From: Halobacteriovoraceae bacterium
Lineage (GTDB): Bacteria; Bdellovibrionota; Bacteriovoracia; Bacteriovoracales; Bacteriovoracaceae
Reading direction: 5' to 3'
Assembly: GCA_040377495.1 (NCBI GenBank)
Contig: JBEIOQ010000001.1
Location: 1 to 56,500, forward strand
DNA length: 56,500 nucleotides
Position 1 is the stretch's first letter, and each line of letters begins with the position of its first letter. Positions 24,437 through 52,846 of the stretch are shown piece by piece. The notes under the pieces are model-generated. The model saw only the letters and a list, made by a program, of their open reading frames with translations, did not search any database and was not told the DNA's origin. The position numbers and the translations under genes are program-made.

Positions 24437-24775
24437 TTATGGTTTTACAAGGAACGCGATAACGAATGCGTAGATAACTAGAGACTCGATTAGAGCTAGA
24501 GCAATAATCATTGGAGTAAATAGTTTGTCTGAAGCAGCTGGGTTACGTGCGATACCTTCAAGAGCTACAGAAGCAGCTTTACCTTGAGCATAAGCTCCAC
24601 CAATAGCAGCAAAAGTGATTGCACCAGCAGCAGCTAGAGCGAACCAAGCTTTTTCAGTTACAGCTGGAATAGCAGCAGCAACATTAGTAGTAGTTGTGGC
24701 CATAGTTCCTGTTTCGTCAGCGAAAGCAAGAGCAGATACCACTAGAGCAACAAGAGCAGAAATAAGTTTTAACAT
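24437..24775 (-). CDS. atpE: F-type ATP synthase subunit c, with an N-terminal signal-like extension
   Basis: 112 aa. The hairpin core is IGGAYAQGKAASVALEGIARNPAA...IIALALIESLVIYAFVIA, with the carboxylate Glu. A roughly 45-aa N-terminal extension begins with a signal-peptide-like segment (MLKLISALVALVVSALAFA). Confidence 0.9.
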   Translation of the reverse strand: MLKLISALVALVVSALAFADETGTMATTTTNVAAAIPAVTEKAWFALAAAGAITFAAIGGAYAQGKAASVALEGIARNPAASDKLFTPMIIALALIESLVIYAFVIAFLVKP

Positions 24776-24815
24776 AGAAAATCCCCTGTTAAAAAAGTGT
24801 TAATATTCGGTTTAA

Positions 24816-34145: not shown

Positions 34146-34517
34146 AGGGCCCTCGAGTTTACACTCTCTATCTTATATATATAGTTTAGAACATATTAGT
34201 AGTAAGCATCAGGATATGTTGAAAAATTAAATTTCTAAATTATATTAAGAACTTAATTTATCTCAATGTTTTTCATTGCTGGGATAATTTACTACTTCAG
34301 TTCTTTTTTTTGCGTATATTATTCAAATTTTCTTTAAAACTGTAAATTTATTCTCAATTTTGAACTAAATAAATGTGTAATACGCTAACTAACTCTTTAA
34401 TGTTTTACTTTGTTTAGCTTATTTAGGTCTACTTATTAACATTTTTATCCCCATGTGGAAAAGAAAAGTGTTATGACGCGTTTTATACTTATCCCAAGTA
34501 TGTTTATAAGTTGATTA
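34146..34517. other. Putative oriC (dnaA-dnaN intergenic region)
   Basis: At 372 bp this is the largest and most AT-rich non-coding gap in the window. Back-to-back DnaA-box-like 9-mers are TTATCCCCA (34445-34453) and TGTGGAAAA (34454-34462, reverse complement TTTTCCACA). Further TTATCCC-type boxes lie at 34279-34287 (reverse complement TTATCCCAG) and 34489-34497 (TTATCCCAA). TA-repeat and AT-rich tracts at about 34170-34260 are a candidate unwinding element. Confidence 0.6.
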
Positions 34518-36134
34518 CTATAGACTGTTTTCAATTTCCAAAACAGTTTGAGCCCATTTTTGATCCACTCGGATCTGTTGTTCAATTTTATTCACTGCGT
34601 GCATAACGCTGGTGTGATCGCGCTTCCCGTAAAAATCACCAATCTCAACTAAAGTTGCCTTAAGAATCTTGTGACTTAAATACATAGCAATATGTCTCGC
34701 TGTCGCTAGATCTTTTGTTCTTACCTTTGAGCGGATATCAGAAATAGAGAGTTTATAATAGTTGGCGACGGATTTAATTATAGAATCAAATGTGATGCTA
34801 TCAGCACTATAAGTATCATTAAGGTTAAGTTGGCTTTTAGCTATTTCTACGTCAATATCGACCTTACATACACTCGAATAAAGACCTAAGCGGATCAAGG
34901 ATGACTCTAATTCACGCACATTACTTTTTACCGCAGAGGCGATTAAATTCACCACATCATCAGGGACGTAGATATCTTTCTCAATTGCTTTACGTTTTAA
35001 AATAGCAATTCTGGTCTCTAGGTCAGGTTGTTGAATATCTACAATAAGTCCCCAACCTAAACGTGTTTTAACTCGTTCTTCGATACCATTTATGTCTTTT
35101 GGAGCTTTATCTGAGGTAAAAATCAGTTGCTTACCTTTATTATGAAGTTCATTAAAAATATTAAAGAAAGCATTTTGAGTTTCGTTTTTGTTTTTTAACT
35201 CGTGAATGTCGTCGATAATAAGGACGTCGAATTCATTAGTGTAACGATTTTGAAATTCTGAAACTTTACGGTTTTGAACTGATTTTACAAAATCATCTAC
35301 AAATTCATTACCTGTTATCAAACCAATTTTAAGATGTGGTTTTGTTTCACGAATACGATTAGCTAAAGCACATAATAAATGAGTTTTACCTAAACCAGAA
35401 GCGCTATGTAGATATAATGAGGGGTAATCTTTCCCAGGATTATTTGCTACTGCTTCACAGGAGGCAAAGGCAAGGTTATTAGAAGATCCTACGACGAAAT
35501 TTTCAAAGACTTTATCCGGGTCGATTTTTTTGTATTTTCTTTCAACTTGTAATTCTTCGATCACTTTAGCTTGGTATTGATCGATTAGATCATTTTTCGT
35601 TGGCATAAGATCATTGATAGAAAAGCTTGTTTCCCTTACGCTTGATCCTTTCTTCACGGAATAAGGACCTTCTACATCTTTTATCACAACAGGTTGTGCG
35701 GTAGTCGTCGTTTTTACTGGGGTTACATCACCTAATAAATCGATAGCAAAGGAATAGTCTTTGCCTAATGTCATCTTGATCGCCTTGGCGACTTGATGGG
35801 AATAGTTCCCCTCAATGATTTTTTTAATAAAGCTGGTGGTCACTGTAAAAATGAGACCATCATTTTCCATGCGGGATAAATGAAAATTATCACTAAAGTA
35901 TGTTTGATACTTTTGCGCTTCCACGGTTTCCTCTAATAAGGAGTGGATGGCCTGATCCAGACCTTGGATTTCCTCACGAGAAAAGCCAGTTGGGGCAGTT
36001 TTAGGTGTAATTTTAGTTTCAATCAATGAAGGTTTTACTTCATCTAAAGCAATGTTTTTAATAGGTTTTGAATCATTAGTTACTGGAGTTTCACTATTTA
36101 TTTTCAAAAAGTGGAAAGGAAAATTATTTTCCAT
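34518..36134 (-). CDS. dnaA: Chromosomal replication initiator protein DnaA
   Basis: 538 aa. The AAA+ motifs are Walker A (SGLGKTHLL) and Walker B (VLIIDDIH). The C-terminal DNA-binding helix is ARHIAMYLSHKIL...GKRDHTSVMHA. It has a long domain-II linker. Confidence 0.97.
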   Translation of the reverse strand: MENNFPFHFLKINSETPVTNDSKPIKNIALDEVKPSLIETKITPKTAPTGFSREEIQGLDQAIHSLLEETVEAQKYQTYFSDNFHLSRMENDGLIFTVTTSFIKKIIEGNYSHQVAKAIKMTLGKDYSFAIDLLGDVTPVKTTTTAQPVVIKDVEGPYSVKKGSSVRETSFSINDLMPTKNDLIDQYQAKVIEELQVERKYKKIDPDKVFENFVVGSSNNLAFASCEAVANNPGKDYPSLYLHSASGLGKTHLLCALANRIRETKPHLKIGLITGNEFVDDFVKSVQNRKVSEFQNRYTNEFDVLIIDDIHELKNKNETQNAFFNIFNELHNKGKQLIFTSDKAPKDINGIEERVKTRLGWGLIVDIQQPDLETRIAILKRKAIEKDIYVPDDVVNLIASAVKSNVRELESSLIRLGLYSSVCKVDIDVEIAKSQLNLNDTYSADSITFDSIIKSVANYYKLSISDIRSKVRTKDLATARHIAMYLSHKILKATLVEIGDFYGKRDHTSVMHAVNKIEQQIRVDQKWAQTVLEIENSL

Positions 36135-36296
36135 GAACCGTCCTTCTTCAGTCTATCGTCAATTTATAGAGGGATCCGTACGAGGGGGTTACATGTAGCA
36201 TGGCCAAGAGTTTAATTACAATCTTAAGTTCGTACCTTCTGAAAAATTTTCTTTTGTACGCTTGGCGCAACAAATTCAAGTTTTTTTAGTTAGATA

Positions 36297-36325
36297 TTGA
36301 CCTAATTGAGATTTATCGGTAATAC
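36297..36325 (+). promoter_or_regulatory. Predicted sigma70-type promoter of the rpmH-rnpA-yidD-yidC... operon
   Basis: TTGACC (36297-36302), a 17-nt spacer, then TAATAC (36320-36325). It sits about 40 nt upstream of the rpmH ATG. Confidence 0.45.
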
Positions 36326-36366
36326 TACCCACTCTAAATTTAGACTCTTGAACTAAGGAAATACTT

Positions 36367-36519
36367 ATGAGTAAACGTACATGGCAACCTAAAAAAGTTA
36401 AACGCTTAAGATCTCACGGCTTTTTAACCCGTATGAAAAGTAAGGGCGGACAAGACGTTATTAAAAGAAGAAGAGCTAAGGGTAGAAGAAAACTGACCGT
36501 TATTACGGGAACTAAATAA
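36367..36519 (+). CDS. rpmH: 50S ribosomal protein L34
   Basis: It is not in the ORF track because it is under 60 aa. My hand translation is [50 protein letters not shown]. This is a classic L34 sequence with an AAGGA Shine-Dalgarno sequence upstream, and it lies directly upstream of rnpA. Confidence 0.95.
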
Positions 36520-36522
36520 TCT

Positions 36523-37101: not shown

Positions 37102-38574
37102 TTGTCCATGTCATCTGATAATAAACGCGCGATTTTAGCGGTAGTTCTTTCTGGTCTTATTCTCTTTGGATGGCAGCACTTTTTTGCTCCCAAAAACGTC
37201 GTAAGCAATACAGTCCCTGCGACTGAAACGGTGGCGGCAAACACTAACAATCCCGCTCCAATCACAGCACCGGCCACTGGAACAGTTGAGAAAATTGAAG
37301 CTCCAACTACTGCTCAGCTTTTGACTGATTACACAGTTAGAAATCAGCAAAATTCTTTTACTATTAATAACCAACTTCAAATCACGGCGGTAGCAAGCCC
37401 TAAAACGAGCTTTTCTTATATAGATACTGTGGGCTCACCTCAAGCATTCTCTCTTGAAGTAGAGAAAAATAACCTCTTCCATAAAATTTGGATCAATTTC
37501 ACTCAGTTAGATGAAAAAACACTAGAAGGAGCGAGCGACGAATTAGGTTTGAAGGTTAAATTGTGGTTAGAAGAAAATGGTAAATTAAACTACATTTTCA
37601 CCTCTACAAATGCTTATAAGTATAGAGTAGTTTTGAGTGCGACTAAAAAGGAATTAGATGGTGGACATCATCGTGAATTTACCGTTTTGGCCAAAGATCT
37701 TGAAAAGTTTGCTGTTGGAAAAAGTGATGAAGGTGAAGGCGAAATAAAGTGGCTTGGCATTGATTTTAATTTCCACCTTTTTTCTTTTATCTATAAAGAA
37801 AAGAAACTTTCTGTTTTTAATATAACAGAAGCTGGACAATTGACGGCCATGTTGGTGAATCCAACCACAACTCTTGAAGGTAGCTTTGTATTTGCTAAAA
37901 AAGACTACGATTTACTGACTAGTTTAGGAGATAATCTGAATCAAGGAATTGATTATGGAATGTGGGCTGTTTTTGCCATTCCTATTCTACGTGCTCTTCA
38001 GTTTTTCTATAAATTCTTCCCTAATTATGGGGTAGCGATCATTCTTCTTACTTTATTCATCCGACTTTTAACTTTTCCTCTTCAGTATAAGTCTTTTAAG
38101 AGTATGAAGAAGATGCAGGATCTCCAACCTGAATTGAATAAATTGAAAGAAAAATTTAAAGATGATCCTCAGCGTATGCAGAAAGAAACTATGGATCTTT
38201 TTAAGAAATCAGGTGCTAACCCGCTTGGTGGTTGTCTACCTTTGCTGTTACAAATGCCGATCTTTTTTGCTTTTTATAAAGTGTTGTTTAACTCTACTGA
38301 ACTAATGGGGGCCCCTTTCATGTTGTGGATTAAAGATCTATCGCATAAAGACCCTTTCTATGTTCTTCCTGTGTTAATGGCCGGATCAATGTTCTTACAA
38401 CAGAAGATGACTCCGTCACCTTCTGCCGATCCAACACAACAAAAAATTATGATGTTCATGCCACTTATTTTCGGTCTGATTATGAAGGATTTACCGTCAG
38501 GATTAACCCTTTATATCTTCGTTTCGACTATCATGGGGATTGGTCAACAATACTTCGTTTATAAAAGAACCTAA
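37102..38574 (+). CDS. yidC: Membrane protein insertase YidC
   Basis: 490 aa. It has an N-terminal TM helix, a periplasmic domain, and the Oxa1 core (PLQYKSFKSMKKMQDLQPEL...GANPLGGCLPLLLQMPIFFAFY). Confidence 0.95.
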   Translation: MSMSSDNKRAILAVVLSGLILFGWQHFFAPKNVVSNTVPATETVAANTNNPAPITAPATGTVEKIEAPTTAQLLTDYTVRNQQNSFTINNQLQITAVASPKTSFSYIDTVGSPQAFSLEVEKNNLFHKIWINFTQLDEKTLEGASDELGLKVKLWLEENGKLNYIFTSTNAYKYRVVLSATKKELDGGHHREFTVLAKDLEKFAVGKSDEGEGEIKWLGIDFNFHLFSFIYKEKKLSVFNITEAGQLTAMLVNPTTTLEGSFVFAKKDYDLLTSLGDNLNQGIDYGMWAVFAIPILRALQFFYKFFPNYGVAIILLTLFIRLLTFPLQYKSFKSMKKMQDLQPELNKLKEKFKDDPQRMQKETMDLFKKSGANPLGGCLPLLLQMPIFFAFYKVLFNSTELMGAPFMLWIKDLSHKDPFYVLPVLMAGSMFLQQKMTPSPSADPTQQKIMMFMPLIFGLIMKDLPSGLTLYIFVSTIMGIGQQYFVYKRT

Positions 38575-39965
38575 TGAACTTATTATTCAGTGATGGACCT
38601 ATTATCGCTTGCAGTACCAATGCTAACGCTAATAGTGCCATCGCTGTTATACGCCTTTCTGGCTTTGATTCTCTCGAACCATATCAGCCTTACTTTTCCA
38701 CCGATTTTAAAAAACTCAAACCACGCATGGCCACTTTGTCTGATCTTTCCGATGGAATGACCAAACTTGATTCAGTGGTTTTGACTTATTTTAAGGGACC
38801 CAAGTCCTACAATGGAGAAAATATTTTAGAACTTGCGGTGCACGGAAACCGTCTGAATGTTGAGAGAATTTTGACTCTTTTTGAGTCTAAAAAATTGGCC
38901 AGGTTCTCGGCTCCCGGAGAATTTACTTACCGTGCTCTAAAAAATTCAAAAATGAGCTTAAGCCAAGTGGAAGGCCTGGATCTGATGCTCAATGCTCAAT
39001 CAGAATTTGCTTTAGGCCAAGGTTTGTCTTTAATCAGTGGTGATTTAAACGATAGTTTTCAAAAATTATTTAATACTTATTTAAAATTGAAAACTAGTGT
39101 AGAGATGCATTTTGATTTTTTAGAAGACATGGGTGAAGAGCAAGCCAATAAACTTTTTCGTGAAAGTTTAGCTGATTTCTCCTCTCAAATTGGCAATTTG
39201 GCGAAAAGGGCTTCGACAGATAATTCCTCTTTAATGTCTCCTGAGATTGTTCTGGTAGGAGAAACTAATGCTGGGAAAAGTTCTCTTTTTAATCAATTTT
39301 TAGGATTTGATCGCTCGATTGTTTCCCCAATTAAAGGAACCACACGAGATTTTATTTCTGAGTACATTAAGCTTAAGGGAACAACCTACAAGCTGGTAGA
39401 TACCGCAGGTTTGCGAGCGAAAACCGATGATGAAATTGAGAAGATGGGTATGAAGTTGAGTCTAGAAAAGCTCACGAAGGCCTTTTTTAAAATTTTAGTG
39501 ATTAATCCCTTAGAAACTTTTTCTCCCTCAGCAGATTACTTAAAAATGAAATTTGATATGGTGGTATTTACTCACAAAGATGACCCAAGTTTTGATAAAG
39601 CTATGGTTGAATTTATGGCCAAGCATGGTTCTATAGAACCACTTAAAAATCTTGGTCCTATAGAACCAATCATGATTTCGACTCTTTCTGGTCCTATAGA
39701 ACCAAAACTAGAATCTCTTATTTCTGATAAATTTGCTCAATTATTAGCTAACTCACCGATATTACTAGAGAGACAACGTTTGGAGTTAAATAAACTGTAT
39801 TTAATTATTAGTGAATTCAACGAGTTATCTATTACTGAACCTGATATGGCAATTCTTTCGCATGAGCTCAATAATATTGGTCAAAGTCTCTCCGAATTGA
39901 TAGGTGTGATCGCACCCGACGATGTCTTGGACAATCTTTTCTCCAACTTCTGTATTGGAAAGTAG
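38574..39965 (+). CDS. mnmE: tRNA modification GTPase MnmE
   Basis: 463 aa. G1 is [13 protein letters not shown]3 is DTAGLR, and the C-terminal motif is CIGK. Its start overlaps the yidC stop. It contains three in-frame copies of a 15-bp repeat (see the repeat feature at 39627-39704). Confidence 0.93.
39627..39704 (+). repeat. Three copies of the 15-bp quasi-palindrome GGT(T/C)CTATAGAACCA inside mnmE
   Basis: The copies are GGTTCTATAGAACCA at 39627-39641, GGTCCTATAGAACCA at 39654-39668 and GGTCCTATAGAACCA at 39690-39704. Start-to-start spacings are 27 and 36 nt, so all three are in frame (G-S/P-I-E-P). The sequences between the copies are unrelated to each other. Confidence 0.9.
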
Positions 39966-39968
39966 ATT

Positions 39969-39984
39969 TGTTCCACGTGGAACA
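39969..39984. other. parS centromere-like site 1
   Basis: TGTTCCACGTGGAACA is a perfect 16-bp palindrome (18 bp with the flanking T/A). It matches the ParB-binding consensus TGTTNCACGTGAAACA at 15 of 16 positions. It lies in the 22-bp mnmE-mnmG gap. Confidence 0.85.
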
Positions 39985-39987
39985 ATT

Positions 39988-41841
39988 ATGACAATAATTT
40001 TCGATATCCTAGTTTTAGGTGGTGGCCATGCCGGCTTAGAAGCAGCTCATGCAGCAGCTCAGTTTGGTTTGGATGTCGCTCTGTTTGTCATGCCTGGAGT
40101 GAAGGTGGCTTCGGCTCCTTGTAACCCGGCCATTGGTGGAGTGGGTAAAGGGCAAGTGGTTCGCGAGCTGGATGCACTCGGTGGAGTGATGGGAAAGCTA
40201 GCTGACTTAGCTGGGATTCAGTACCGAGTCCTCAATGAGTCTAAAGGTTTCGCGGTTCAATCTAGCCGTGTACAAATAGATAAAGAAATCTATGCTGAGG
40301 AGGCCGAGAAATTGGTGGCCAGCATTTCTAATATCTTTCTAGTTAGAGAGAAAGTTCTTTCAGTGACTAAGGTTGAGAACTTATTTGAAGTGGTATCAAC
40401 CCAACGGTCCTATAGAACCAGAAAGGTCATCGTCACGACAGGAACTTTCCTGGGTGGAAAGATGCATACGGGTGCTCATCAAAGTATTGGTGGGCGAGTG
40501 GGAAAAGAGGCCAGTCCTCATCTAACCAGTCTTCTCTCCCAAGTGAAAACGGGCAAGAGTCGTTTTAAAACCGGAACACCTTCTCGTATCGCTCGAAGCT
40601 CGATTGACTATACTAAACTACAAGTTCAGCCCTCAGATCCTTCAACGAGAAACCTCCATTGTTTGCATGATGGACAGATTCGTTTCCAAAAACAATTGGA
40701 CTGCTACCTCACTTATACAAATGAAGATACTTTGGGGATTATTCGTGAGAACAAAGAAAAGTCTCCCATGTATAACGGACAGATCAATGGTGTAGGGGCA
40801 AGATATTGTCCGAGTATTGAAGATAAGGCCTTCCGCTATCCTGATAGAAATACTCACCATGTGTTCATCGAACCAGAAGGGATCGATGTAGAAACTATGT
40901 ATCCTAGCGGGGTTTCCTCTAGTTTGCCAGCTGATGTTCAAGAGGCTTTTCTAAAGACCATTCCGGGCTTAGAAAGCTGTGAAATCCTGGTTCCTGGTTA
41001 TGCTGTAGAATACGATGTGGTGGATACAACAACACTTGATCTTACCCTTGAATACAAAGATATTACTGGTCTCTACTTCGCCGGGCAGGTCAATGGAACT
41101 TCTGGCTATGAAGAGGCCGCAGGACAAGGATTGATTGCTGGATTGAACGCTAGTCTTAGTTTGCTTGGCCGTGAGAAATTGGTCTTGGATCGCCAAGAAT
41201 CTTATATCGGTGTGATGATTTCCGACCTCACCTTGAACACCAGAGATGAACCTTACCGTCTGTTCACCGCTCGTTCGGAAAACCGTCTTTATATCCGTGA
41301 GGATAATACCATCAACCGTATGGCCTCTTACCGTTTGTCTTTGGGTTTGAACGCCAAGCTTGATCAGTATTTAGAAAGTTTTATAGCAGAATATGATCTA
41401 CTGATGAAACTTTGCCGTGACATTACTTTTAGTTCCCAGTCCGAAATGATGTTGAAGTACCAGGATCCTGAGAACAAAAAAACCTTTCAGGCCAAGATCC
41501 CTTTGGCAGAACTGATGCGCCAATCTTGGATTAATCCGGTTGACGTTTTGGCCAAAGAACTAGCTGAGATGCATGTGAGTTTTTCTTCTGATGTGGTTCA
41601 GGCCGTAGCGATTAGCTTAAAATACGACGGATATATTAAAAAGTCTCAAGATCAATATGAGAAGATTAAGAAGCTTGATAATATGAAGCTAAACTGGGAA
41701 GAGATCACTAATTCTTCCAATATTTCTTTTGAGTGTAAGTCGCGAATTGCCAAGATCCGTCCAGAAACTTTTGGCCACTTAAAGCTGATTGAAGGAATTC
41801 GCCCCGCTACTTTAGCGATCATTGCCGGGAAACTTTATTAA
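39988..41841 (+). CDS. mnmG: tRNA uridine 5-carboxymethylaminomethyl modification enzyme MnmG (GidA)
   Basis: The FAD-binding N-terminus reads [20 protein letters not shown], and [11 protein letters not shown] is also present. I moved the start to the ATG at 39988, because the track start at 39922 overlaps mnmE and reads across parS. Confidence 0.95.
40406..40420 (+). repeat. Copy of the GGTCCTATAGAACCA motif inside mnmG
   Basis: This is an exact 15-mer. Here it is read in a different frame (..R-S-Y-R-T-R..) from the mnmE copies. Confidence 0.85.
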
Positions 41842-42482
41842 TGATCACAAGAGAATTTTCCGACGAACTATTTAGCATCTACTTCGGTGAACTGGAAGGT
41901 TTAAATTTAACTGCGATCCGTGAACCCACCGAGTTTTATCACAAACAAATTCTCGATTCGATTTATCCTTATGAGCAGTCTGAAACCTTCCGTGGTTCTA
42001 TAGGGGCACATCCTTATTATATAGATGTAGGATTTGGCGGAGGATTTCCTCTACTTCCTCTAGCAAAACTTCTCTCAGATAAAAAATGTGTGGGCATTGA
42101 TTCAAAAAATAAAAAGGTCGAAGCAGTAAAGTTAATTGCTAGCAAAGTTGGATTAGAAAACGTTCGACCTTATCATGCTCGTATTGAAGATGTGTTAATT
42201 GATCGTCCTGCGACTTTAACCTTTAAAGCTGTTGGCAGAATTTACGACATGCTAAACTTACTAAATTATTCAACGCCAATCGAAGTTTTTTTCTATAAGG
42301 GACCTAACGTTTACGAATTAGAAGAAATGGACTTTGCAAAAATTGGAAATAAGTGGGAAAGAATCGAAGAGAAGGAAATTCAAGTACCTAACACAGATAA
42401 ACGAATTTTATTAGGGTATAAAAGCAAAATTGTTCCACGTGGAACAGCTAAATACCTTGTCAAACTCTCTGACATTATTTAA
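41841..42482 (+). CDS. rsmG: 16S rRNA (guanine527-N7)-methyltransferase RsmG (GidB)
   Basis: 213 aa. The SAM-binding motif is IDVGFGGGFPLLPLA. It lies in the canonical position after mnmG. Confidence 0.88.
   Translation: MITREFSDELFSIYFGELEGLNLTAIREPTEFYHKQILDSIYPYEQSETFRGSIGAHPYYIDVGFGGGFPLLPLAKLLSDKKCVGIDSKNKKVEAVKLIASKVGLENVRPYHARIEDVLIDRPATLTFKAVGRIYDMLNLLNYSTPIEVFFYKGPNVYELEEMDFAKIGNKWERIEEKEIQVPNTDKRILLGYKSKIVPRGTAKYLVKLSDII
42431..42446. other. parS centromere-like site 2, inside the 3' end of rsmG
   Basis: TGTTCCACGTGGAACA is identical to site 1. In rsmG it encodes ..IVPRGT.. It lies 68 nt upstream of the parA ATG. Confidence 0.85.
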
Positions 42483-42513
42483 AAATTTCTCACGGACTTT
42501 CAGGAGAAATTCA

Positions 42514-43323
42514 ATGGCCAAAATTATTGCGATAGCAAACCAAAAAGGTGGCGTTGGTAAAACGACGACCTCAATTAACCTTGCCGCTGGTTTAGCAGTA
42601 GCTGAGAAAAAAACTCTACTATTAGATTTAGATCCTCAAGGTAACGCAAGTCTTGGTCTAGGTTTGGACAAAGCTAGCTTTGCTCAAAAAAATATTTATC
42701 ACGCTATTATTGGTGAAGAGAATATTGAAGAGGCCATTTATAAAACTGATTTACCTTATTTAGATATTTGTCCCTCTGACAATAACCTCACTGGTGCAGA
42801 AATTGAGCTAGTGGGTGCCTTTGCCCGCGAAACAAAGCTAAAGACTGCCCTAGAGTCCGTTATGGATCACTATGACTACATCATTATAGATTGCCCTCCT
42901 TCTTTAACTCTTTTAACAGTGAACGCTCTTACTGCAGCGCACAGTTATATTGTTCCAATGCAAACAGAATTTTTTGCAATGGAAGGACTTTCACAGTTAT
43001 TAAACACTGTTCGTCTTATCCGTCATTCCTTAAATCCGAGATTAGAATTAGAAGGTATTCTTCTGACTATGTTCGATGCTCGTAACAATCTTTCTAAGCA
43101 AGTGGCTTTTGAAATTAAAAAACACTTCAAAGACTCAGTATTAAAAACCATCATTCCAAGAAACGTGAAATTATCTGAGTCACCAAGCTTTGGTAAGCCA
43201 ATCATTCTTTATGATGTTAGCTCAAAAGGTAGTGAGGCTTATTTCTCATTAGCAAAAGAAGTCATCATTAATACAGATCCAAAATATTTAATTAATAAAC
43301 CATCGTCAGAGATGACTTTTTAA
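42514..43323 (+). CDS. parA: Chromosome partitioning ATPase ParA (Soj)
   Basis: The protein starts MAKIIAIANQKGGVGKTTTSINLA (deviant Walker A). An AGGAGA Shine-Dalgarno sequence lies 7 nt upstream of the ATG at 42514. The track start at 42430 is an artefactual extension through parS and rsmG. Confidence 0.93.
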   Translation: MAKIIAIANQKGGVGKTTTSINLAAGLAVAEKKTLLLDLDPQGNASLGLGLDKASFAQKNIYHAIIGEENIEEAIYKTDLPYLDICPSDNNLTGAEIELVGAFARETKLKTALESVMDHYDYIIIDCPPSLTLLTVNALTAAHSYIVPMQTEFFAMEGLSQLLNTVRLIRHSLNPRLELEGILLTMFDARNNLSKQVAFEIKKHFKDSVLKTIIPRNVKLSESPSFGKPIILYDVSSKGSEAYFSLAKEVIINTDPKYLINKPSSEMTF

Positions 43324-43334
43324 GCGGGGACTTT

Positions 43335-44225
43335 ATGGTACAAAAAACTGTTTTAGGTAAAGGTATTGCTTCTCTTATTCAATCAAGTCAGTCTGATTAT
43401 GGCAGTGAAAATAGAGCAAAAACTGAGCCGGCAATTAACATTATTAAAGGTGAGTCTTTATTAGTTCCCGTAGGAAAAATAAAAGCGAATCAATATCAAC
43501 CAAGAAGAATTTTTAAAGAAAAAGATATTGTTGAACTTGCAGAATCAATCAAGGAAAACGGCATCATTCAACCACTGATTGTAATCGAAAAAGGTAATGA
43601 ATTTGAATTAATTGCAGGTGAACGTCGTTTGAGAGCAGCAAAATTGGCTGGTCTTGAGCAAGTTCCTGTGGTGATCAAAAAAGCTACTGATCGCGAAAAA
43701 TTAGTCATGGCGATTATTGAAAACGTTCAACGTTCAGAGTTGAATTGTATAGAAGAAGCTTTAGCTTATTTCCAACTCATGGAAGATTTTAAATTAACCC
43801 AAGAAGAAGTGGCTAAAAAAATCGGGAAAGAGCGCTCAACTATTGCTAATTTTCTTCGTATCTTAAAACTTCCTCGCGATGTAATTGGTCTTTTAAAGGA
43901 AGAAAAACTTTCATTTGGGCACGCAAAGATTTTAGCGGCAGTAAAGGAAGCAGAACACGCAAAAAGACTGGCATTTCAAGTAGTAGAAGCAAACCTTTCT
44001 GTAAGAGAATTGGAAGTTCTCATTAATAAAAAACCAAAAACAGTCAAAGAAGAAACGAAAAAGAACTTCTTTACCGACAAACTTGATCCACTTAAAAATA
44101 AATTAGAGCAAAAAACTGGTTTTCATTTTAAACTAGCAGGTAAGAAGAACGGTGCAGGTGTTGTAACGATTAAGTTTAATAATGAAGCTGAATTTAACGA
44201 CATCTATGACTACTTAATGAAGTAA
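43335..44225 (+). CDS. parB: Chromosome partitioning protein ParB (Spo0J)
   Basis: 296 aa. The ParB box is LIAGERRLRAAKLAGL, and an HTH follows (LTQEEVAKKIGKERSTIANFLRIL). Confidence 0.95.
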   Translation: MVQKTVLGKGIASLIQSSQSDYGSENRAKTEPAINIIKGESLLVPVGKIKANQYQPRRIFKEKDIVELAESIKENGIIQPLIVIEKGNEFELIAGERRLRAAKLAGLEQVPVVIKKATDREKLVMAIIENVQRSELNCIEEALAYFQLMEDFKLTQEEVAKKIGKERSTIANFLRILKLPRDVIGLLKEEKLSFGHAKILAAVKEAEHAKRLAFQVVEANLSVRELEVLINKKPKTVKEETKKNFFTDKLDPLKNKLEQKTGFHFKLAGKKNGAGVVTIKFNNEAEFNDIYDYLMK

Positions 44226-44226
44226 T

Positions 44227-44565
44227 ATGCAAGATAGAAAAGGTGAAATTTCAGCGATTATTGAGGAAGGTTGCAAATTTGATGGCAACCTTTCCTTTAA
44301 TGGCGTGGTGCGAATCGCTGGTCAGGTTAATGGTAATATTTTTTCTAATGACACACTGATCATATCTGAAGGTGCATTGATTAACGCCGATATCAATGCC
44401 AACGTCATCCTGATATCAGGAAATGTGAAAGGTAACTTGAAGGCCACTTCTCGCGTGGAAATTCGCAAGCCTGCTCGCTTTGAGGGAACGATCACAGCAC
44501 CAAGTCTTATTGTGGAAGAGGGAGTCATTTTCCATGGTGTGACAAAAATGAAAGAATTAAACTAA
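44227..44565 (+). CDS. Bactofilin
   Basis: 112 aa. It has a beta-helical DUF583-type repeat pattern (KFDGNLSFNGVVRIAGQVNGNIFSNDTLIISEGALINADINANVILISGNVKGNL...). It starts 1 nt after the parB stop. Confidence 0.88.
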   Translation: MQDRKGEISAIIEEGCKFDGNLSFNGVVRIAGQVNGNIFSNDTLIISEGALINADINANVILISGNVKGNLKATSRVEIRKPARFEGTITAPSLIVEEGVIFHGVTKMKELN

Positions 44566-44629
44566 ATAGTTTTTCTTTCTACATCATACCATTCTCTTTT
44601 TAAGACCGTTGTATAAATCCTTAATTCCC

Positions 44630-44658
44630 TTGACGAAAGTACCTAAATTCTCTAATTA
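44630..44658 (+). promoter_or_regulatory. Predicted sigma70-type promoter of the atpF'FHAGDC operon
   Basis: TTGACG (44630-44635), a 17-nt spacer, then TAATTA (44653-44658). It sits about 30 nt upstream of the ATG at 44690. Confidence 0.45.
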
Positions 44659-44689
44659 TTAAGCCTAAATTTAGACTCGAGGCACTTCT

Positions 44690-45139
44690 ATGGAAACCAT
44701 TCAAGCGATTTTCTCTCAATTAGGAGCGAACGGCTCAATTGTTAATCAAATTGTTATCGTTTTTGTTTTTTATTTTTTAGCAAAATATGTTTTCTTCAAT
44801 AAACTTCAATTCGTTATTGAAAACCGCGAAGAGAAAACAACTAAGCTAGAAAATCATGCGGACGAAATGTTTGAGCAAGCAAATAAGCTAGGTGAAAAAT
44901 ATAAAGCTAAAATTGAAACCGCTCACGCCAAAGCTCAGTCTTTTCTTTCAGATAAGAAATCCCAAGCTAAATCAGAGATGAATGCCAAGCTTAAGAACTC
45001 TGAAGATGAAGTAAATGCTTATGTTGAAAGCTCGAAACAAAAAATCAAAGAAGATATTCAGAATAAAAGAAATGAAGTTATGTCTGAATCAAACCAACTT
45101 GCCAATCTACTAATTAATAAACTTACAGGAAAGCACTAA
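44690..45139 (+). CDS. atpF: F-type ATP synthase subunit b' (first of two b-type subunits)
   Basis: 149 aa. It has one N-terminal TM helix followed by a long charged coiled coil. It is the first gene of the F1/stalk operon. Confidence 0.8.
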   Translation: METIQAIFSQLGANGSIVNQIVIVFVFYFLAKYVFFNKLQFVIENREEKTTKLENHADEMFEQANKLGEKYKAKIETAHAKAQSFLSDKKSQAKSEMNAKLKNSEDEVNAYVESSKQKIKEDIQNKRNEVMSESNQLANLLINKLTGKH

Positions 45140-45684
45140 TGTTAAAATTTGCTTTTGTCTTCACACTGTTTATTGCAGATGTAATAGCCTCGGGCGATGC
45201 CCATGGTGGTCATCAACCAACAATGAAAGACCTAATTGCTCCTACCTTTAATTTTGTCATTCTTTTTGGGTTTCTTCTTTATAAGATTAAAGCTCCCATG
45301 AAGAGTTTCTTCGATACGAAATCAAAAAAGATTTCTGAAATCTTAGACCGAGCACAAGTTAAGTCTAAGGAAGCTCAGGTTCTCTTTGATTTAAATACGA
45401 GAAAAGTTAAAGAAGCAGATAATGATGCTGCTAACATTCTTAAGGCTGCAGAAGAAGACGCCAGAAAGTTTGCTATGGACTGTGACAAAGAAGCAAAAGA
45501 TAAAACGGAAAAGTTAAAATCAGAGGCCATTAACCGTGTTGAGGCTGAAAAGAAAGTCATGATTAATCAATTAAATAAAGAACTAGTTGATGAAGTTATT
45601 ATGAAGTCGAAAAAAATTATTTCGAGTGATAACAAGGTAAAAACTGATCTGACAACGAAAGCAGTGAAGGAAATTGCTCAATGA
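45139..45684 (+). CDS. atpF: F-type ATP synthase subunit b
   Basis: 181 aa. It has an N-terminal hydrophobic segment, a TM helix and a charged coiled coil. It is followed by atpH. Confidence 0.8.
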   Translation: MLKFAFVFTLFIADVIASGDAHGGHQPTMKDLIAPTFNFVILFGFLLYKIKAPMKSFFDTKSKKISEILDRAQVKSKEAQVLFDLNTRKVKEADNDAANILKAAEEDARKFAMDCDKEAKDKTEKLKSEAINRVEAEKKVMINQLNKELVDEVIMKSKKIISSDNKVKTDLTTKAVKEIAQ

Positions 45685-46217
45685 AAGAACAAATTGTAGC
45701 CAAGGCTTATGCTCAGGCAATTATTGATTTAGGTCAGGAAAAAAAGATTGATACCGCTTCTGAATTAACAAAATTCCAGGAAGTCATTAATAGTTCAAAT
45801 GATCTAGAAAACGTCATGTTTCTAGAAGTTTTCACAATTGAAGAGAAAAAAGATATTTTTGCTTCGATTTCCAAAAAGCTTCAGCTTAATAGTATTGTTA
45901 ATAACTTCATTGATTACCTTATTGATGTAAAACGCATTGGTCTACTTCCGCTTATCTATAAGGAAGTGATGGTGTTAGATGATTACGAAAAAGGTTTTAT
46001 TCGCGGAACGATTGAAGGCGCAGATAAAGAGATCGATACAGCTCTTCTAACACAGATTAAAAGTTTCTTAAAAAATAAAGTCGGAAAAAACCCAGAATTA
46101 ACCTACGTGCAAAATGCGAATGTTACAGCTGGTTTTAAAATTACTGTTGATGATTTCCAGGTGGATGCAACAGTCGACAATCAACTAGAACAATTTAAAA
46201 ACTCGATCGTTTTATAA
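45681..46217 (+). CDS. atpH: F-type ATP synthase subunit delta (OSCP)
   Basis: 178 aa. It has an OSCP-like start (AKAYAQAIIDLG) and lies between b and alpha. Confidence 0.85.
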   Translation: MKEQIVAKAYAQAIIDLGQEKKIDTASELTKFQEVINSSNDLENVMFLEVFTIEEKKDIFASISKKLQLNSIVNNFIDYLIDVKRIGLLPLIYKEVMVLDDYEKGFIRGTIEGADKEIDTALLTQIKSFLKNKVGKNPELTYVQNANVTAGFKITVDDFQVDATVDNQLEQFKNSIVL

Positions 46218-46228
46218 TTTGGAGATAA

Positions 46229-47743
<1,515 letters not shown>

Positions 47744-47770
47744 TAAGCATTAAGGCTTAGGATATAAACC

Positions 47771-50073
<2,303 letters not shown>

Positions 50074-50075
50074 TC

Positions 50076-50486
50076 ATGAGTTATTTTAAAGTGGATATAT
50101 TCACTCCTGCTGGCGTCGTCGATAAAAACATCGATGCCAGCTCGGTGACTCTTTCCACCATTCGTGGAGAGATTGCAATTCTTCCTGAGCATACTCATTT
50201 AATAACTGAGCTTGCTCCTGGAATTATGACAGTGAAGACGGATAAAGGTGATCGTCACTTTTTTCTAACTACTGGAATTGCTAAAATCTTAAAAAATAAA
50301 GTAACTATACTTGCACACACTTCTGAAAAAGCTGAAAGCATTGATAAAGAGAGAGCTCAGCGAGCTCTTAATAAAGCAAAAGAAAAACTTTCAGGGAAAG
50401 AATCACTTAATGACATAGAGTTAATTAAGTTCCGTCGTAAACTTGAAAGAGCAGAACATCGTTTAAAATTAGCTTACTTGAAATAA
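50076..50486 (+). CDS. atpC: F-type ATP synthase subunit epsilon
   Basis: 136 aa. It has a beta-sandwich followed by a helical hairpin, and it is the last gene of the operon. Confidence 0.9.
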   Translation: MSYFKVDIFTPAGVVDKNIDASSVTLSTIRGEIAILPEHTHLITELAPGIMTVKTDKGDRHFFLTTGIAKILKNKVTILAHTSEKAESIDKERAQRALNKAKEKLSGKESLNDIELIKFRRKLERAEHRLKLAYLK

Positions 50487-50487
50487 T

Positions 50488-50538
50488 GGTCCCATAGGAC
50501 CGTGATGACCTCTGGGTAGTCATGGTCCTATAGAACCA
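50488..50538 (+). repeat. Cluster of small palindromes directly after atpC, including one exact GGTCCTATAGAACCA copy
   Basis: The cluster has three elements: the variant GGTCCCATAGGACC (50488-50501), a small ATGAC..GTCAT hairpin (about 50505-50523), and the exact 15-mer GGTCCTATAGAACCA (50524-50538). Confidence 0.85.
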
Positions 50539-50650
50539 CCTTAAAAACTATCTGAATACTCACCTACAAATTTACTCTGGCTATTCACTAAATTCATCTA
50601 CTTGACGCAATTTTGTTTTAAAACTCTCTAATTTCGCTACACTAAATTTA

Positions 50651-52846
50651 ATGCGATCAAGATATTTGGTTCTAGCTTTAACCATAATGACAACGTTTGG
50701 ATGGATTCTCCATTCAAGTCTGGATCTATTTTATAGTCAGCAAACCATCTCTATTTCGACGCTAACCAAAGCTATCTCAACCCTTAAAAGTTTTGAAAAC
50801 ACGCAGATTGTGATTTCGAACTCAGGTAAAGACTACATTCACAACACTGACGAACGTTTGGCATCTTTAGAAAGAAATTTTAAGTCGTACAGAATCCAAC
50901 ATAAAGCAACTTCAGCTGTGATTATAGCTAAAACTAAGTCAGTGAAGGAATTCATTGAGAAAAGTGAAGTGGCCCGTGAAATAAAGCTTTACCAAGCGGC
51001 GACGAAGATCTTAACAGTAAAACATATAACGAAGGACCTACCTTCAGTTATTAAAGCAACAGAAACAATTGAAAAAGATCAGTTTTCTTTTCAACATAAA
51101 ATCCAAACAACGACAGTTAGCTATGCTCTTAACTATAAGGCAATGAAAAACTACGATTATATTGCTTTCCATGGACCAACCGAAAAGAAAGAACTTAAGG
51201 ATGAAGTTAAGTTAGCGATGGCATCACCGACGAAAACGAAAGAAAAACTTTCTGAACTATCAGAGGAAGAATTAAAATTAGATGAATCTGATGAATTAAT
51301 TTTAAAAAATCTTGATGATGAAGCTACTGCAGTACCTCTGGTTGAGGATAAAACTGACACCGTAAAGGTTGAAAATAAAACAACGACTCAAGAAGATCAT
51401 AGTTTAGAAATTGATGATCTTAATACTTATGAGTATTCAACTTTGGCCTCAGATCAAAATCCAAAAACTGAAGACACTTCTCCTCTTATTAAGTCGTCTG
51501 CTGTTTCTAGTAGTGTAAGTCAGGTTATCGGGCGAGAAATGCAGAACAATACTATGGGCCCATATAAATTTGAAAAAATACCAAAAACAACTGTACCTGA
51601 TACGACAACATTGGCTTCTAATGCTCCGGTGACGAACCCAATGATTAATTATTCTGGGTTAAAGACCGGCGAGAACAAGAATAAAACGCAATTGAGTACT
51701 CAAATGAATACTCAATTGAAAATTAGATCGATGAGTTTAAATCTGCTTGGAAAGAAGCAGGGTCTTTTAAGAGAGTTTGACTATCAATCTGTATACGATG
51801 TTAATGAATTACGGAGCTCTGACGAAAAAGGGGAGTTAGATCTCACTTTTCCTATCTCAAGAACCGGTATGAAGGCCATCTCGCTACGCTCGGATGAACA
51901 TTTAAAAACCAATATGAATGTTGAATTAAACATTGAAGACGATAATGAAATATTGGTTCCAATGATCGATGGACCGAGCTTAGAGGCTTACTTAGTTTCA
52001 AGGAATATTGAAGCCAGTGGTGGATTTCTGCTAATTAAGATTGATGGATCAGTAGAAACTGTTGGTTTGGATAAAACATTTTCTGGATTCGTGAATTTTG
52101 ATGAAAAGCTGAAGGTAACTCAGGATGAGTCTAAGGCCCAATATGTTCTTTATCTGGGTGTTGCGCCTGGAAATGTTCTCGTCACAGTGAAAATGAAAGA
52201 AGGGGCAACTTCATATATTACACATGTATCAGAAAATGAATTAACATACGACTATTTGTCGATGAATAAACTGAGTTTTCAGAAAATAGAACTTACGGTG
52301 GAAGAATTGATGTCAAAGAAAGCTCTGCCACTTAATATTCCAGGGGAAGAAATTTTAAGTTTTTCTAGTAATAAGAAATCTCAAAAGTTAAATATGAATA
52401 CATATGAATTTACATCTGAATTTACTAAGGCCGATACACAGAACTACTTTGAAATAAAAAATAAAGAAATGAATGTGTTTTTTGGTGTAAAAACTAATCA
52501 GAAAATTGTGATTCCATCTCAAAGCTATCAAGATGAAATTTATAATCTTTTTCATGTTAAAGAACCGAATCAAGTTTGTATTGTGCAAATTAATCTAGAT
52601 GCAAAAAAGAAATTGGACAACATAAGATCTTTGGCCCAGACAGTAGATGGACAAGATAATTTCAACCTAATGGCATTGGATAAAGATGGAACAATTGGAG
52701 AAGACGTCTCTGATACAACATCAAAAATCTTCTTTAAGGGTGAACATCAAGGAGTCTTAAATCTAGAGCTTAACTTTGTTGATAATACACAGGAATCAAT
52801 TCAAACCTTCTGTTCTCAAGGCATTTACTTAATCGAACAGCGATAG
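50651..52846 (+). CDS. Hypothetical exported or membrane-anchored protein (731 aa) with no domain I can recognise
   Basis: It has an N-terminal hydrophobic anchor (LVLALTIMTTFGWIL), an acidic low-complexity linker (residues about 190-290, E/D/K/T-rich), and a C-terminal region of about 400 aa that is beta-rich by composition. No Shine-Dalgarno sequence is evident. Confidence 0.6.
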   Translation: MRSRYLVLALTIMTTFGWILHSSLDLFYSQQTISISTLTKAISTLKSFENTQIVISNSGKDYIHNTDERLASLERNFKSYRIQHKATSAVIIAKTKSVKEFIEKSEVAREIKLYQAATKILTVKHITKDLPSVIKATETIEKDQFSFQHKIQTTTVSYALNYKAMKNYDYIAFHGPTEKKELKDEVKLAMASPTKTKEKLSELSEEELKLDESDELILKNLDDEATAVPLVEDKTDTVKVENKTTTQEDHSLEIDDLNTYEYSTLASDQNPKTEDTSPLIKSSAVSSSVSQVIGREMQNNTMGPYKFEKIPKTTVPDTTTLASNAPVTNPMINYSGLKTGENKNKTQLSTQMNTQLKIRSMSLNLLGKKQGLLREFDYQSVYDVNELRSSDEKGELDLTFPISRTGMKAISLRSDEHLKTNMNVELNIEDDNEILVPMIDGPSLEAYLVSRNIEASGGFLLIKIDGSVETVGLDKTFSGFVNFDEKLKVTQDESKAQYVLYLGVAPGNVLVTVKMKEGATSYITHVSENELTYDYLSMNKLSFQKIELTVEELMSKKALPLNIPGEEILSFSSNKKSQKLNMNTYEFTSEFTKADTQNYFEIKNKEMNVFFGVKTNQKIVIPSQSYQDEIYNLFHVKEPNQVCIVQINLDAKKKLDNIRSLAQTVDGQDNFNLMALDKDGTIGEDVSDTTSKIFFKGEHQGVLNLELNFVDNTQESIQTFCSQGIYLIEQR

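Follow-up and report, generated by a model that had tools for sequence, protein, structure and literature searches.

Families of sites near the origin, among them parS, the Noc-binding sites (NBS) and ram, have in every case led to the discovery of a protein that organises the chromosome. The NBS are sites of a ParB paralogue that derive from parS, and they are an earlier case of a parS-like site whose specificity has switched; the specificities of Noc and ParB are separated by two positions per half-site. The lineage analysed here consists of predators with filamentous growth and non-binary division, some members of which package their DNA with histones, and the positioning and partition of the origin in such predators is a question on which the motif described below bears.

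The window, that is, the whole stretch of 56,500 nucleotides that was analysed, comes from a Bacteriovoracaceae genome and represents its origin region. The probable origin was placed by the minimum of the cumulative GC skew, by dnaA and by two DnaA-box-like words at 34445-34462. All the copies of the motif in the window lie to the right of this neighbourhood, and we found no literature on the motif. We propose that the copies are a family of 16-bp palindromic duplex sites, associated with the centromere, which would be read by a dimeric sequence-specific DNA-binding protein, a reading to which we give a probability of roughly 0.55.

The palindrome and where it is found

In its full reading the word is a 16-bp palindrome with the consensus TGGTYCTATAGRACCA, sometimes extended to 18-20 bp in the family. 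A previous sequence-only reading of the window had reported the exact 15-mer GGTCCTATAGAACCA at 39654, 39690, 40406 and 50524, the variants GGTTCTATAGAACCA at 39627 and GGTCCCATAGGACC at 50488, and a possible half copy at 41994 in rsmG. All six copies are present as reported, and the half copy turned out to be a conserved degenerate copy, GGTTCTATAGGGGC. The earlier claim that chance does not explain them is confirmed: the window contains 6 exact copies of the degenerate 14-mer GGTYCYATRGRACC, versus 0.00 in 100 dinucleotide-preserving shuffles. The contexts were also correctly given: G-[S/P]-I-E-P in mnmE, R-S-Y-R-T in mnmG and non-coding DNA for the two copies after atpC. Nevertheless, the start of the family had been set at 40406, which omits the three mnmE copies of that same report, and the strand consistency holds for the four asymmetric copies of the window, but the word reads almost identically on both strands and the bias in relatives outside the GPIEP frame is just 10:2.

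Table 1. Positions of the sites, the parS and the neighbouring genes in the window
Feature	Sequence	Position	Strand	Description
Probable replication-origin neighbourhood		34146..36522		dnaA (34518-36134, minus strand) with the intergenic region on either side
mnmE		38574..39965	+	host gene of the three-site array
Site 1	TGGTTCTATAGAACCA	39626..39641		perfect 16-bp palindrome, in mnmE, frame G-S-I-E-P
Site 2	TGGTCCTATAGAACCA	39653..39668		in mnmE, frame G-P-I-E-P; 27 bp past site 1
Site 3	TGGTCCTATAGAACCA	39689..39704		in mnmE, G-P-I-E-P; 36 bp past site 2; G5 region of the GTPase domain
Canonical-type parS (parS-1)	TGTTCCACGTGGAACA	39969..39984		between mnmE and mnmG; kept at the junction in most related loci
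mnmG		39988..41841	+	host gene of site 4; ATG at 39988
Site 4	cGGTCCTATAGAACCA	40405..40420		in mnmG, other frame (R-S-Y-R-T); offset 418 from the start codon
Degenerate site	GGTTCTATAGGGGC	41994..42007	+	in rsmG; left half intact, right half variant
parA, parB and bactofilin genes		42430..44565	+	centre of the site-bearing zone
Second canonical-type parS	TGTTCCACGTGGAACA	42431..42446		3' end of rsmG / start of parA
Site 5	TGGTCCCATAGGACCg	50487..50502		non-coding, 1 bp 3' of the atpC stop (50486)
Site 6	TGGTCCTATAGAACCA	50523..50538		non-coding, 36 bp past site 5, ~113 bp upstream of orf731

Individual sites are retained in related loci. The ortholog of site 1 is found in locus L001 at 11051, and the offset of site 4 in mnmG is likewise occupied in L001, L012 (with 1 mismatch), L061 and L083. 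The 14-mer of the degenerate rsmG site is identical in L001 at an equal offset (153), and its right half, GGGGC, was found again in other loci. Site 5 is unchanged in L026 despite the divergence of the spacer.

The copies are interleaved with the two parS, as had been noted. To the left of dnaA we found no copies either in the window or in four 21-kb loci. The left 39 kb of the window had been described as free of copies apart from short partial matches, and the best matches there are two with 2 mismatches, at chance level, while isolated half-sites occur at about the frequency expected by chance (an estimate of ~7).

A motif scan of 185,579 species genomes gave at least 120 eight-kb blocks among the matches listed. 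The genes of the origin cluster are carried by 72 of these listed blocks, and every match there falls within the stretch from yidC to the atpC/orf731 spacer. Among the matches listed, 72 of the 74 Bacteriovoracia blocks fall in the origin cluster, with only 2 Bacteriovoracia-labelled blocks elsewhere. An independent scan of metagenomes agreed: among the matches listed, the 23 contigs assigned to Bacteriovoracia all have their matches inside the origin cluster, where the assignment was made by the origin-cluster genes themselves; a small number of low-GC contigs lacked these genes and could not be assigned. The motif zone, as drawn from this sample of matches listed in both scans, is one cluster of ~13-15 kb, yidC-mnmE-mnmG-rsmG-parA-parB-bactofilin-atp. 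Among the matches listed, the word is conserved across Bacteriovoracia, the motif family is specific to this class and it is almost wholly confined to the parAB/parS zone on one side of oriC.

A truly dispersed palindrome with the same core was seen in Pseudonocardia-like genomes.

Selection on the DNA word in coding sequence

Around three quarters of the sites lie deep in coding sequence (mnmE 169 of 218, plus yidC, mnmG, rsmG and parB). Frame 0 coding copies, which are read as G-P/S-I/M-E/G-P, account for 192 of the 218 (~88%), and sites are also kept in frame 1 (R/W-S-Y-R-T) and in non-coding DNA. The selection acts on the DNA word and not on the peptide. This had been suggested from the different contexts of the copies, and the fixation of the codons now backs it statistically. 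In 220 pentapeptides defined at the peptide level as G[PS][IM][EG][PA], the Gly codon is GGT in 219 (background 39%) and the Ile codon is ATA in 194 of 196 (background 17%). The first Pro is encoded by CCT or CCC only and the last one by CCA in 180 of 193; even the codon before the pentapeptide ends in T in 208 of the 220 (background 39%). Array copies within one genome are non-independent because of slippage, so there were fewer independent events than these copy counts suggest. A tandem repeat at the peptide level would need free synonymous choice and we rejected it, since the codons are fixed and there are frame-1 and non-coding copies.

In the closest relative, whose MnmE is 60% identical, all seven positions of the window are kept although the identity at third codon positions is only 40-55%. 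This refutes one recent local gene-conversion event, which had been named as one of the cases that would overturn the family. Furthermore, the single sites in the N-terminal regions of yidC and mnmE are invariant while the flanking synonymous codons vary, with synonymous positions near saturation around the invariant sites.

The number of sites in the mnmE arrays ranges from 1 to about 11. In the protein they appear as GPIEP-type repeats, and in the DNA they have periods of 24, 27 and 30 bp beside parS-1 (range 24-36 bp, in multiples of three), with a median distance from site to parS of 451 bp. Such periods are out of helical phase, therefore cooperative binding on the same face is not indicated. 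The array region of MnmE is an insertion of variable length and the loop is probably disordered, judging by the AF2 model, where sites 1 and 2 of the window fall in a low-confidence loop (residues 353-371) modelled as coil. The GPIEP peptide would thus seem to be tolerated rather than needed, which fits both the variable insertion and the low-confidence coil. This is an unusually clean case of DNA-level selection that overrides codon usage and inserts repeats in an essential tRNA-modification enzyme, and it is relevant for the annotation of "low-complexity insertions" in proteins.

A proposed protein-bound duplex site and its alternatives

A site for a dimeric DNA-binding protein in the organisation of the origin region was among the candidates of the sequence-only reading, and it is supported by the conservation, the confinement to parS and parAB, the override of codon bias and the lack of covariation between half-sites. 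Regarding the last point, the half-sites are GGTCC or GGTTC, and hybrids of the two make up 143 of 218 sites versus 106 expected under independence, so matched pairs are not in excess; no compensatory doubles were found at positions 6/9. The perfect palindrome folds at -8.2 kcal/mol, whereas the commonest form on the sense strand, with a mismatched C..A (111 of 192 coding sites), folds at only -1.8 kcal/mol. A hairpin is therefore the poorer fit, since paired changes are absent and the prevailing coding variant is the one with the weakest fold; a dimeric protein that reads duplex DNA accounts better for the data.

A dimer of the putative protein would bind the TGGTYCTATAGRACCA duplex sites, which are kept wherever the local sequence tolerates them (intergenic, frame 0 or frame 1). 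At a few hundred bp from parS-1, in the part of mnmE that encodes a surface loop, they have multiplied to between 1 and about 11 units. Their role would most likely be to load a second nucleoprotein complex on the centromere/origin domain. Such a complex could serve to anchor or mark the region of the origin, or else give the ParB partition complex its shape or its limits. In its broad form the proposal is tentative and we put it slightly short of an even chance: Bacteriovoracia would have a second centromere-associated system, with a dimeric protein on a 15-kb parS domain, whose sites are so strongly selected that they overprint housekeeping genes and force the GPIEP repeats of MnmE (1 to about 11) and single insertions or substitutions in YidC, MnmG, RsmG and ParB. 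If so, chromosome-organisation signals would be shaping protein sequence, and there would be a handle on the tagging or anchoring of the origin in predatory bacteria with non-binary division. The motif is a ready bait for another chromosome-organising protein. A point against the proposal is that neither a ParB paralogue nor an obvious extra DNA-binding protein is encoded in the window or in some 95 related loci.

The sites might instead be secondary, non-canonical binding or loading sites of the chromosomal ParB, enlarging or shaping the partition complex around the two parS. The motif had been described as having a shorter core than parS; actually, with its flanks (T...A) the unit is 16 bp, the length of parS, so the resemblance is stronger than was noted. 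By direct comparison with the local parS, 10 of 16 positions are identical (5 of 8 per half-site), with differences at positions 3, 7 and 8. Besides this geometry, the sites strictly co-localise with parS and parAB, and a second ParB-family gene is absent from every locus analysed. Nevertheless, the resemblance is weak and just a lead, as at least 5 of 8 matches per half-site have a chance of ~0.03 in one register, and three positions of each half-site differ, where two already separate Noc from ParB. Moreover, the ParB specificity looks canonical because canonical parS is strictly conserved in these genomes, which counts against this explanation, and we regard it as unlikely. By the parS consensus TGTTNCACGTGNAACA the motif is not itself a parS, with 10 of 16 positions only, and true parS (0-1 mismatch) are separate, including those at the junctions of relatives. 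Nor is it a Noc-binding site: the consensus ATTTCCCGGGAAAT differs, each locus analysed has a single ParB-family ORF, and no noc-like paralogue was found in these loci, including the interval from rsmG to parA.

Alternatively, the sites could serve as operators for the joint control of the operons near the origin (bactofilin, atp, orf731, mnmEG) by a transcription factor, and there are non-coding copies upstream of bactofilin, atpF and orf731. With its arms TGGTC/GACCA, or AGTGGTC...GACCACT in the extended form, the motif resembles GntR/HutC-type operators (e.g. dre, TGGTCTAGACCA), where TGGT and ACCA are 3-4 bp apart. However, in the motif these arms are 8 bp apart, for which we rejected a GntR/HutC-type operator on the family consensus. 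The many sites deep in coding sequence, mostly in mnmE, also speak against operators, as do positions that are not conserved relative to start codons or promoters; the post-atpC pair of the window lies roughly 60-100 bp upstream of a conserved TTGACG element. It would also be unusual for a regulon to be limited to a single stretch of 15 kb. Operators are therefore an improbable explanation.

Still less probable is a hairpin in RNA or single-stranded DNA, which would process, stabilise or terminate the long co-directional transcripts of the cluster, although the host genes are all on one strand. Sites 5 and 6 can pair as a hairpin with a 13-bp stem (-28.7 kcal/mol, z = -5); it is kept in L026, where the spacer has a different sequence and a 5-bp complementarity as in the window. 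In relatives, several sites downstream of atpC are within longer palindromes, some of them perfect over 26-38 bp. This hints at a hairpin role of the post-atpC pair at that one location. For the family as a whole, the absent covariation and the dominance of the weakly folding form in coding sites are against it, no Rfam covariance model matched at gathering score in the whole window, and there is no obvious rationale for writing an RNA element of one cluster as arrays into open reading frames. An intrinsic terminator was rejected too, as the + strand has no U-tract after the atpC-downstream hairpin and the flanks in relatives are a T-run upstream and an A-run downstream.

A peptide repeat of MnmE prone to slippage, with occasional gene conversion or copying into neighbouring sequence and with no function at the DNA level, is very unlikely. 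The arrays are homogeneous within a genome and differ in copy number between genomes, as is typical of slippage, and palindromic units promote it. However, the codon choice is fixed across lineages with MnmE just 38-60% identical, and many lineages either conserve the single sites of yidC, mnmG, rsmG, parB and intergenic DNA or possess them independently. No tandem unit was detected among the three mnmE copies of the window, which have nothing in common past the 16-mer, and slippage leaves the confinement to the parS zone unexplained.

DNA uptake sequences are genome-wide, roughly one per kb, non-palindromic and strand-independent. Hardly credible is the suggestion that the word is such a sequence, a polar word that gives orientation (KOPS- or Chi-like) or a small mobile palindrome of the REP/MITE kind: the exact word is over-represented and the four asymmetric copies of the window have the same orientation, but almost all the Bacteriovoracia matches listed are in one gene cluster and not genome-wide or dispersed (72 of 74 blocks, with 0 copies in the left 39 kb), the motif is in essence a palindrome (self-complementary save one Y/R pair, with the 10:2 bias outside frame 0), and most copies are in-frame coding (~88% in frame 0) rather than extragenic, without target duplications or flanking element sequence. 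Of the candidates of the sequence-only interpretation, the dimeric origin-organising site is the one supported.

Comparison with known systems

As a 16-bp perfect palindrome present in a handful of copies, a few kb from parAB and near oriC, the motif is like parS and is clustered in the same way. Both are tolerated in coding sequence: the mnmG of L077, L079 and L126 carries a parS in-frame, read as F-H-V-E. Arrays of up to about 11 tandem copies are, however, atypical of chromosomal parS. The NBS of Firmicutes are likewise a second family of 16-bp palindromes with parS geometry that is read by a dedicated protein, but they cover most of the chromosome except the terminus, whereas the motif stays within about 15 kb among the matches listed.

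The RacA ram sites of Bacillus subtilis are also short palindromes, concentrated around the origin, that recruit an anchoring or segregation protein, although they extend over hundreds of kb and are GC-rich. The sopC centromere of F is built from tandem arrays of a 16-bp inverted repeat; it is non-coding and has a fixed period of 43 bp, while the arrays described here are translated and have periods of 24-36 bp in multiples of three. Finally, the Rickettsia palindromic elements (RPEs) are palindromic DNA tolerated in open reading frames, where they add a peptide segment to housekeeping proteins. Nevertheless, RPEs are 100-150 bp long, mobile and genome-wide, whereas the motif is 16 bp long and undispersed, is conserved at orthologous positions and has a distribution that tracks the centromere region.

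The origin side with the motif copies

In this origin region of a Bacteriovoracaceae (Bdellovibrionota) member the cumulative GC skew of the window turns at about 34-36 kb. The nearest MnmE on record, from a Bacteriovoracaceae MAG, is 60% identical, and an exact-protein look-up of the window's MnmE returned no identical entry. The sequence-only reading had listed exact 15-mers, variants and a possible half copy on the right of the putative origin, and all of them were recovered. When the flanks are included, the repeated unit is the 16-bp palindrome TGGTYCTATAGRACCA, which is perfect at 39626-39641. The degenerate 14-mer GGTYCYATRGRACC gave six exact matches in the window versus none in 100 dinucleotide-preserving shuffles, therefore the claim that the repetition is not due to chance is borne out. 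The same holds for the claimed lack of copies in the left 39 kb, where we found only two matches, both with 2 mismatches and at chance level; isolated half-sites there are near their estimated chance frequency. The three mnmE copies have no sequence in common outside the 16-mer and tandem-repeat detection in the window found no longer unit. The two parS sites alternate along the window with the motif copies, and the ATP synthase genes are divided by the origin.

Coordinates of the motif copies and of their surroundings in the window
Feature	Position	Strand	Sequence or content
atpB and atpE	24437-25586	minus	~10 kb to the left of the origin
Left of origin			nuo genes, mfd, uvrA, atpBE, gyrAB, recF, dnaN
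dnaA	34518-36134	minus	
Right of dnaA		plus	rnpA, yidC, mnmE, mnmG, rsmG, parA, parB, bactofilin gene, atpFFHAGDC, 731-aa ORF
Variant copy	39627		GGTTCTATAGAACCA
Exact 15-mer	39654, 39690, 40406, 50524		GGTCCTATAGAACCA
parS, canonical type	39969		TGTTCCACGTGGAACA, mnmE/mnmG junction
Degenerate copy	41994		GGTTCTATAGGGGC, in rsmG
parS, canonical type	42431		TGTTCCACGTGGAACA, 3' end of rsmG
atpF-F-H-A-G-D-C	44690-50486	plus	beyond parAB and the bactofilin gene
Variant copy	50488		GGTCCCATAGGACC
orf731	50651-52846		731-aa ORF

Occurrence in Bacteriovoracia and look-alikes elsewhere

The motif is a real, conserved feature and it is class-wide in Bacteriovoracia. A genome scan with one genome per species and TGGTYCTATAGRACCA as query gave at least 120 eight-kb blocks. 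At least 72 blocks carried origin-cluster genes and, among the matches listed, all of their copies lay between yidC and the atpC/orf731 spacer. Two Bacteriovoracia-labelled blocks among the matches listed were outside the cluster: the copy in the L080 block is, judged from sequence, a GPIEP that looks like a chance match, in an ORF for a putative sugar dehydratase/epimerase-like protein, and the L113 block, from a Bacteriovoracaceae MAG, has at 6784-6803 a 20-bp perfect palindrome, ATTGGTCCTATAGGACCAAT, located between the 3' end of radA and a region upstream of dnaX, the sole convincing out-of-cluster copy among the matches listed. We rejected the idea that such copies mark the promoter of the binder's own gene, given the chance-like L080 copy and the lack of a nearby regulator in L113. 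The other listed blocks were single matches in unrelated taxa, e.g. one conserved Caulobacter gene. In a separate metagenome scan, with a perfect 18-mer as query and counts that are lower bounds from the matches listed, at least 23 contigs were assigned to Bacteriovoracia by their origin-cluster genes and all their listed matches were in the cluster, although assigning them in this way is partly circular. A few low-GC contigs that lack origin-cluster genes were left unassigned, and most of the remaining matches belonged to collagen-like GPIGP genes or to a dispersed palindrome of high-GC genomes that is unrelated to the motif.

Regarding the positions within the cluster, the mnmE G-domain array holds 169 of the 218 origin-cluster sites among the matches listed. 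Other recurrent coding positions are the yidC and mnmE N-terminal regions, mnmG, rsmG and parB, and the recurrent spacers are parB-bactofilin, bactofilin-atpF and atpC-orf731 (the latter ORF is conserved after atpC in many Bacteriovoracia). Sites are a median of 451 bp away from the nearest parS, and the loci examined have no copy to the left of dnaA. Four relatives whose DNA was retrieved via protein have the identical palindrome at their MnmE repeats, and there are additional copies in mnmG, rsmG and the parB-bactofilin spacer. The orf731 product had no Pfam or NCBIfam match and its N-terminus is hydrophobic by eye, resembling a signal peptide or membrane segment; in one relative (L011) the motif lies inside orf731, translated G-S-I-G-P.

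The high-GC look-alike is the palindrome CGTGAGTGG[C/T][G/A]AGTGGTCCTATAGGACCACT[C/T][G/A]CCACTCACG of Pseudonocardia-like soil genomes (~70% GC), which is about 44 bp long, usually perfect and unrelated to the Bacteriovoracia motif. It was found at 2246-2305 of L007, in L067, L084 and L101 and in about 70 high-GC contigs among L127-L245 (variants in L045 and L160), in differing intergenic settings, as its 142 flanks fall into 104 clusters. In a Solirubrobacterales version the outer arms are different but the core is retained. The 20-bp core shared with the extended Bacteriovoracia site might be a coincidence or might reflect a shared binder or structure. The collagen-like (Gly-X-Y)n genes of AT-rich organisms (contigs L148, L150, L162, L164, L168, L170, L178, L192, L199, L210, L217 and L229) write GPIGP as GGTCCTATAGGACCA and are therefore false positives in any motif search. 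Finally, one Omnitrophota MAG has two 30-34-bp palindromes (L033 623-638 and L065 7743-7758) with nested GGWCC/GGTYC units around the identical 16-mer core, e.g. CTGAGAACCTGGTCCTATAGAACCAGGTTCTCAG.

Constraint on the DNA and the form of the site

The constraint acts on the DNA and not on the peptide, as the sequence-only reading had also held. We searched the peptide pattern in origin-cluster ORFs and then read the codons; one site per block is conditioned, since the blocks came from a DNA match, the remaining ~150 sites are unconditioned, and array copies within the counts are non-independent events. Gly was GGT in 219 of 220 cases (background 39%) and Ile was ATA in 194 of 196 (background 17%), the first Pro was only CCT or CCC, the last was CCA in 180 of 193, and the codon before the pattern had T as third base in 208 of 220 (background 39%). 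The motif is read in both frames 0 and 1, frame 2 being impossible because it would contain TAG, and 21 copies are non-coding.

Third-codon identity between the window and its closest relative is only 40-55%. This relative retains the three mnmE sites with identical 27- and 36-bp spacings, the mnmG site (offset 418) and the degenerate rsmG site (offset 153) at the same offsets, and the atpC-downstream pair, while the sequence around all of them diverges. In other lineages the single sites of the yidC and mnmE N-terminal regions are an invariant TGGTCCTATAGAACCA amid varying synonymous codons, with decayed forms (gcCCCTATAGAACCa) in some genomes. The mnmG position is filled in several separate lineages and vacant in others, therefore the sites turn over, like parS sites. 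In three loci (L077, L079, L126) the parS core TTCCACGTGGAA lies in-frame in mnmG at about codon 135, translated F-H-V-E, only a few codons before the position of the motif in other lineages (compare window 40385-40400); parS core and motif thus alternate near the same spot, so that one variable MnmG loop hosts either.

In the MnmE homologue alignment the arrays form a variable-length insertion of G-[P/S]-[I/M]-[E/G]-[P/A] repeats between G4 and G5 of the GTPase domain, with protein lengths from 451 to 536 aa. There are 1 to about 11 sites per array, with a period of 24, 27 or 30 bp, rarely 33-36 bp (8-10 codons), which in the inspected arrays is largely uniform within a genome and different between genomes. 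AlphaFold2 modelled residues 353-371 of the window's MnmE (the first two copies) without secondary structure and with pLDDT below 50, which fits a tolerated loop insertion.

The palindrome could be a hairpin in RNA or a site on duplex DNA. The half-sites are GGTCC or GGTTC, and hybrids made up 143 of 218 sites versus 106 expected under independence, thus matched pairs are not enriched; nor did a covariation test of the 218 sites find compensatory doubles at positions 6/9. The C..A hybrid (GPIEP, sense strand), dominant in coding sites (111/192), folds with only -1.8 kcal/mol versus -8.2 for the perfect palindrome, which predominates among the non-coding copies (12/21). Covariation and folding therefore reject the hairpin as a general explanation. 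It is retained as a local possibility after atpC, where the window pair (50488-50538) can pair mutually in a stem of 13 bp (-28.7 kcal/mol, z = -5). In the closest relative (L026, 1781-1832) the stem is kept, as are 5 bp of spacer complementarity, although the spacer sequence differs (GUGAU/GUCAU against AUGGA/UCCAU), and several atpC-downstream copies of other genomes are embedded in 26-38-bp palindromes. The hairpin is not followed by a U-tract, a terminator scan of the window gave nothing relevant and an Rfam search gave no matching family. In general, the pattern is consistent with a dimer recognising double-stranded DNA, the coding copies being a probable compromise between site and peptide.

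Three copies inside mnmE (L226 1756, L187 218, L215 1104) have palindromic flanks too, TTTTTTGGTCCTATAGGACCAAAAAA, translated F-F-G-P-I-G-P-K-K, and such T-run/A-run flanks recur at non-coding copies downstream of atpC; therefore recognition, or DNA shape, may reach beyond 16 bp. A separate perfect 12-bp palindrome, GTGAGTACTCAC, lies on the reverse strand of L026 (about 1757-1768) between the motif pair and TTGACG, a conserved promoter-like element upstream of orf731, with a degenerate counterpart, TGAATACTCAC, at 50553-50563 of the window. It is possibly the operator of another regulator.

Search for a binder and comparison with known systems

The confinement of the motif to one zone, its conservation, the constraint at the DNA level and the lack of hairpin covariation support what the sequence-only reading had put first, a dimeric-protein site organising the origin region. 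Most likely the motif is a family of protein-binding sites that marks the centromere/origin domain, second to parS. We infer from these sequence patterns that a dimeric protein binds it and, on these sites, would organise, anchor or bound the partition complex. According to Pfam/NCBIfam annotation of the window and related loci, the only sequence-specific DNA binders are ParB and DnaA; no ParB paralogue or other candidate binder was found in the window or in about 95 related loci.

No paper with the motif or any of four 14-mers was found, and searching by the motif peptides returned only collagen and poxvirus papers, so the motif is apparently undescribed so far. The motif goes unmentioned in a chromatin/Hi-C study of Bacteriovorax (PMC11789641), which reported a typical origin-terminus cross-diagonal. 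REP/MITE elements, uptake sequences and polar words, the other readings proposed from the sequence, are rejected, as the motif fails their defining distribution.

The extended non-coding motif, AGTGGTCC-TATA-GGACCACT, has TGGT/ACCA arms similar to those of GntR operators, whose arm spacing differs; this is a lead by resemblance only. The motif and the local parS have 10/16 positions in common (TGGTCCTA/TAGGACCA versus TGTTCCAC/GTGGAACA), with a chance probability of about 0.03 in a single register, a lead by resemblance only. By sequence the motif falls outside both parS and NBS. By analogy, it would work like parS, NBS, ram sites and plasmid centromere arrays, and it apparently belongs, as a family not described before, among the origin-proximal centromere-like sites.
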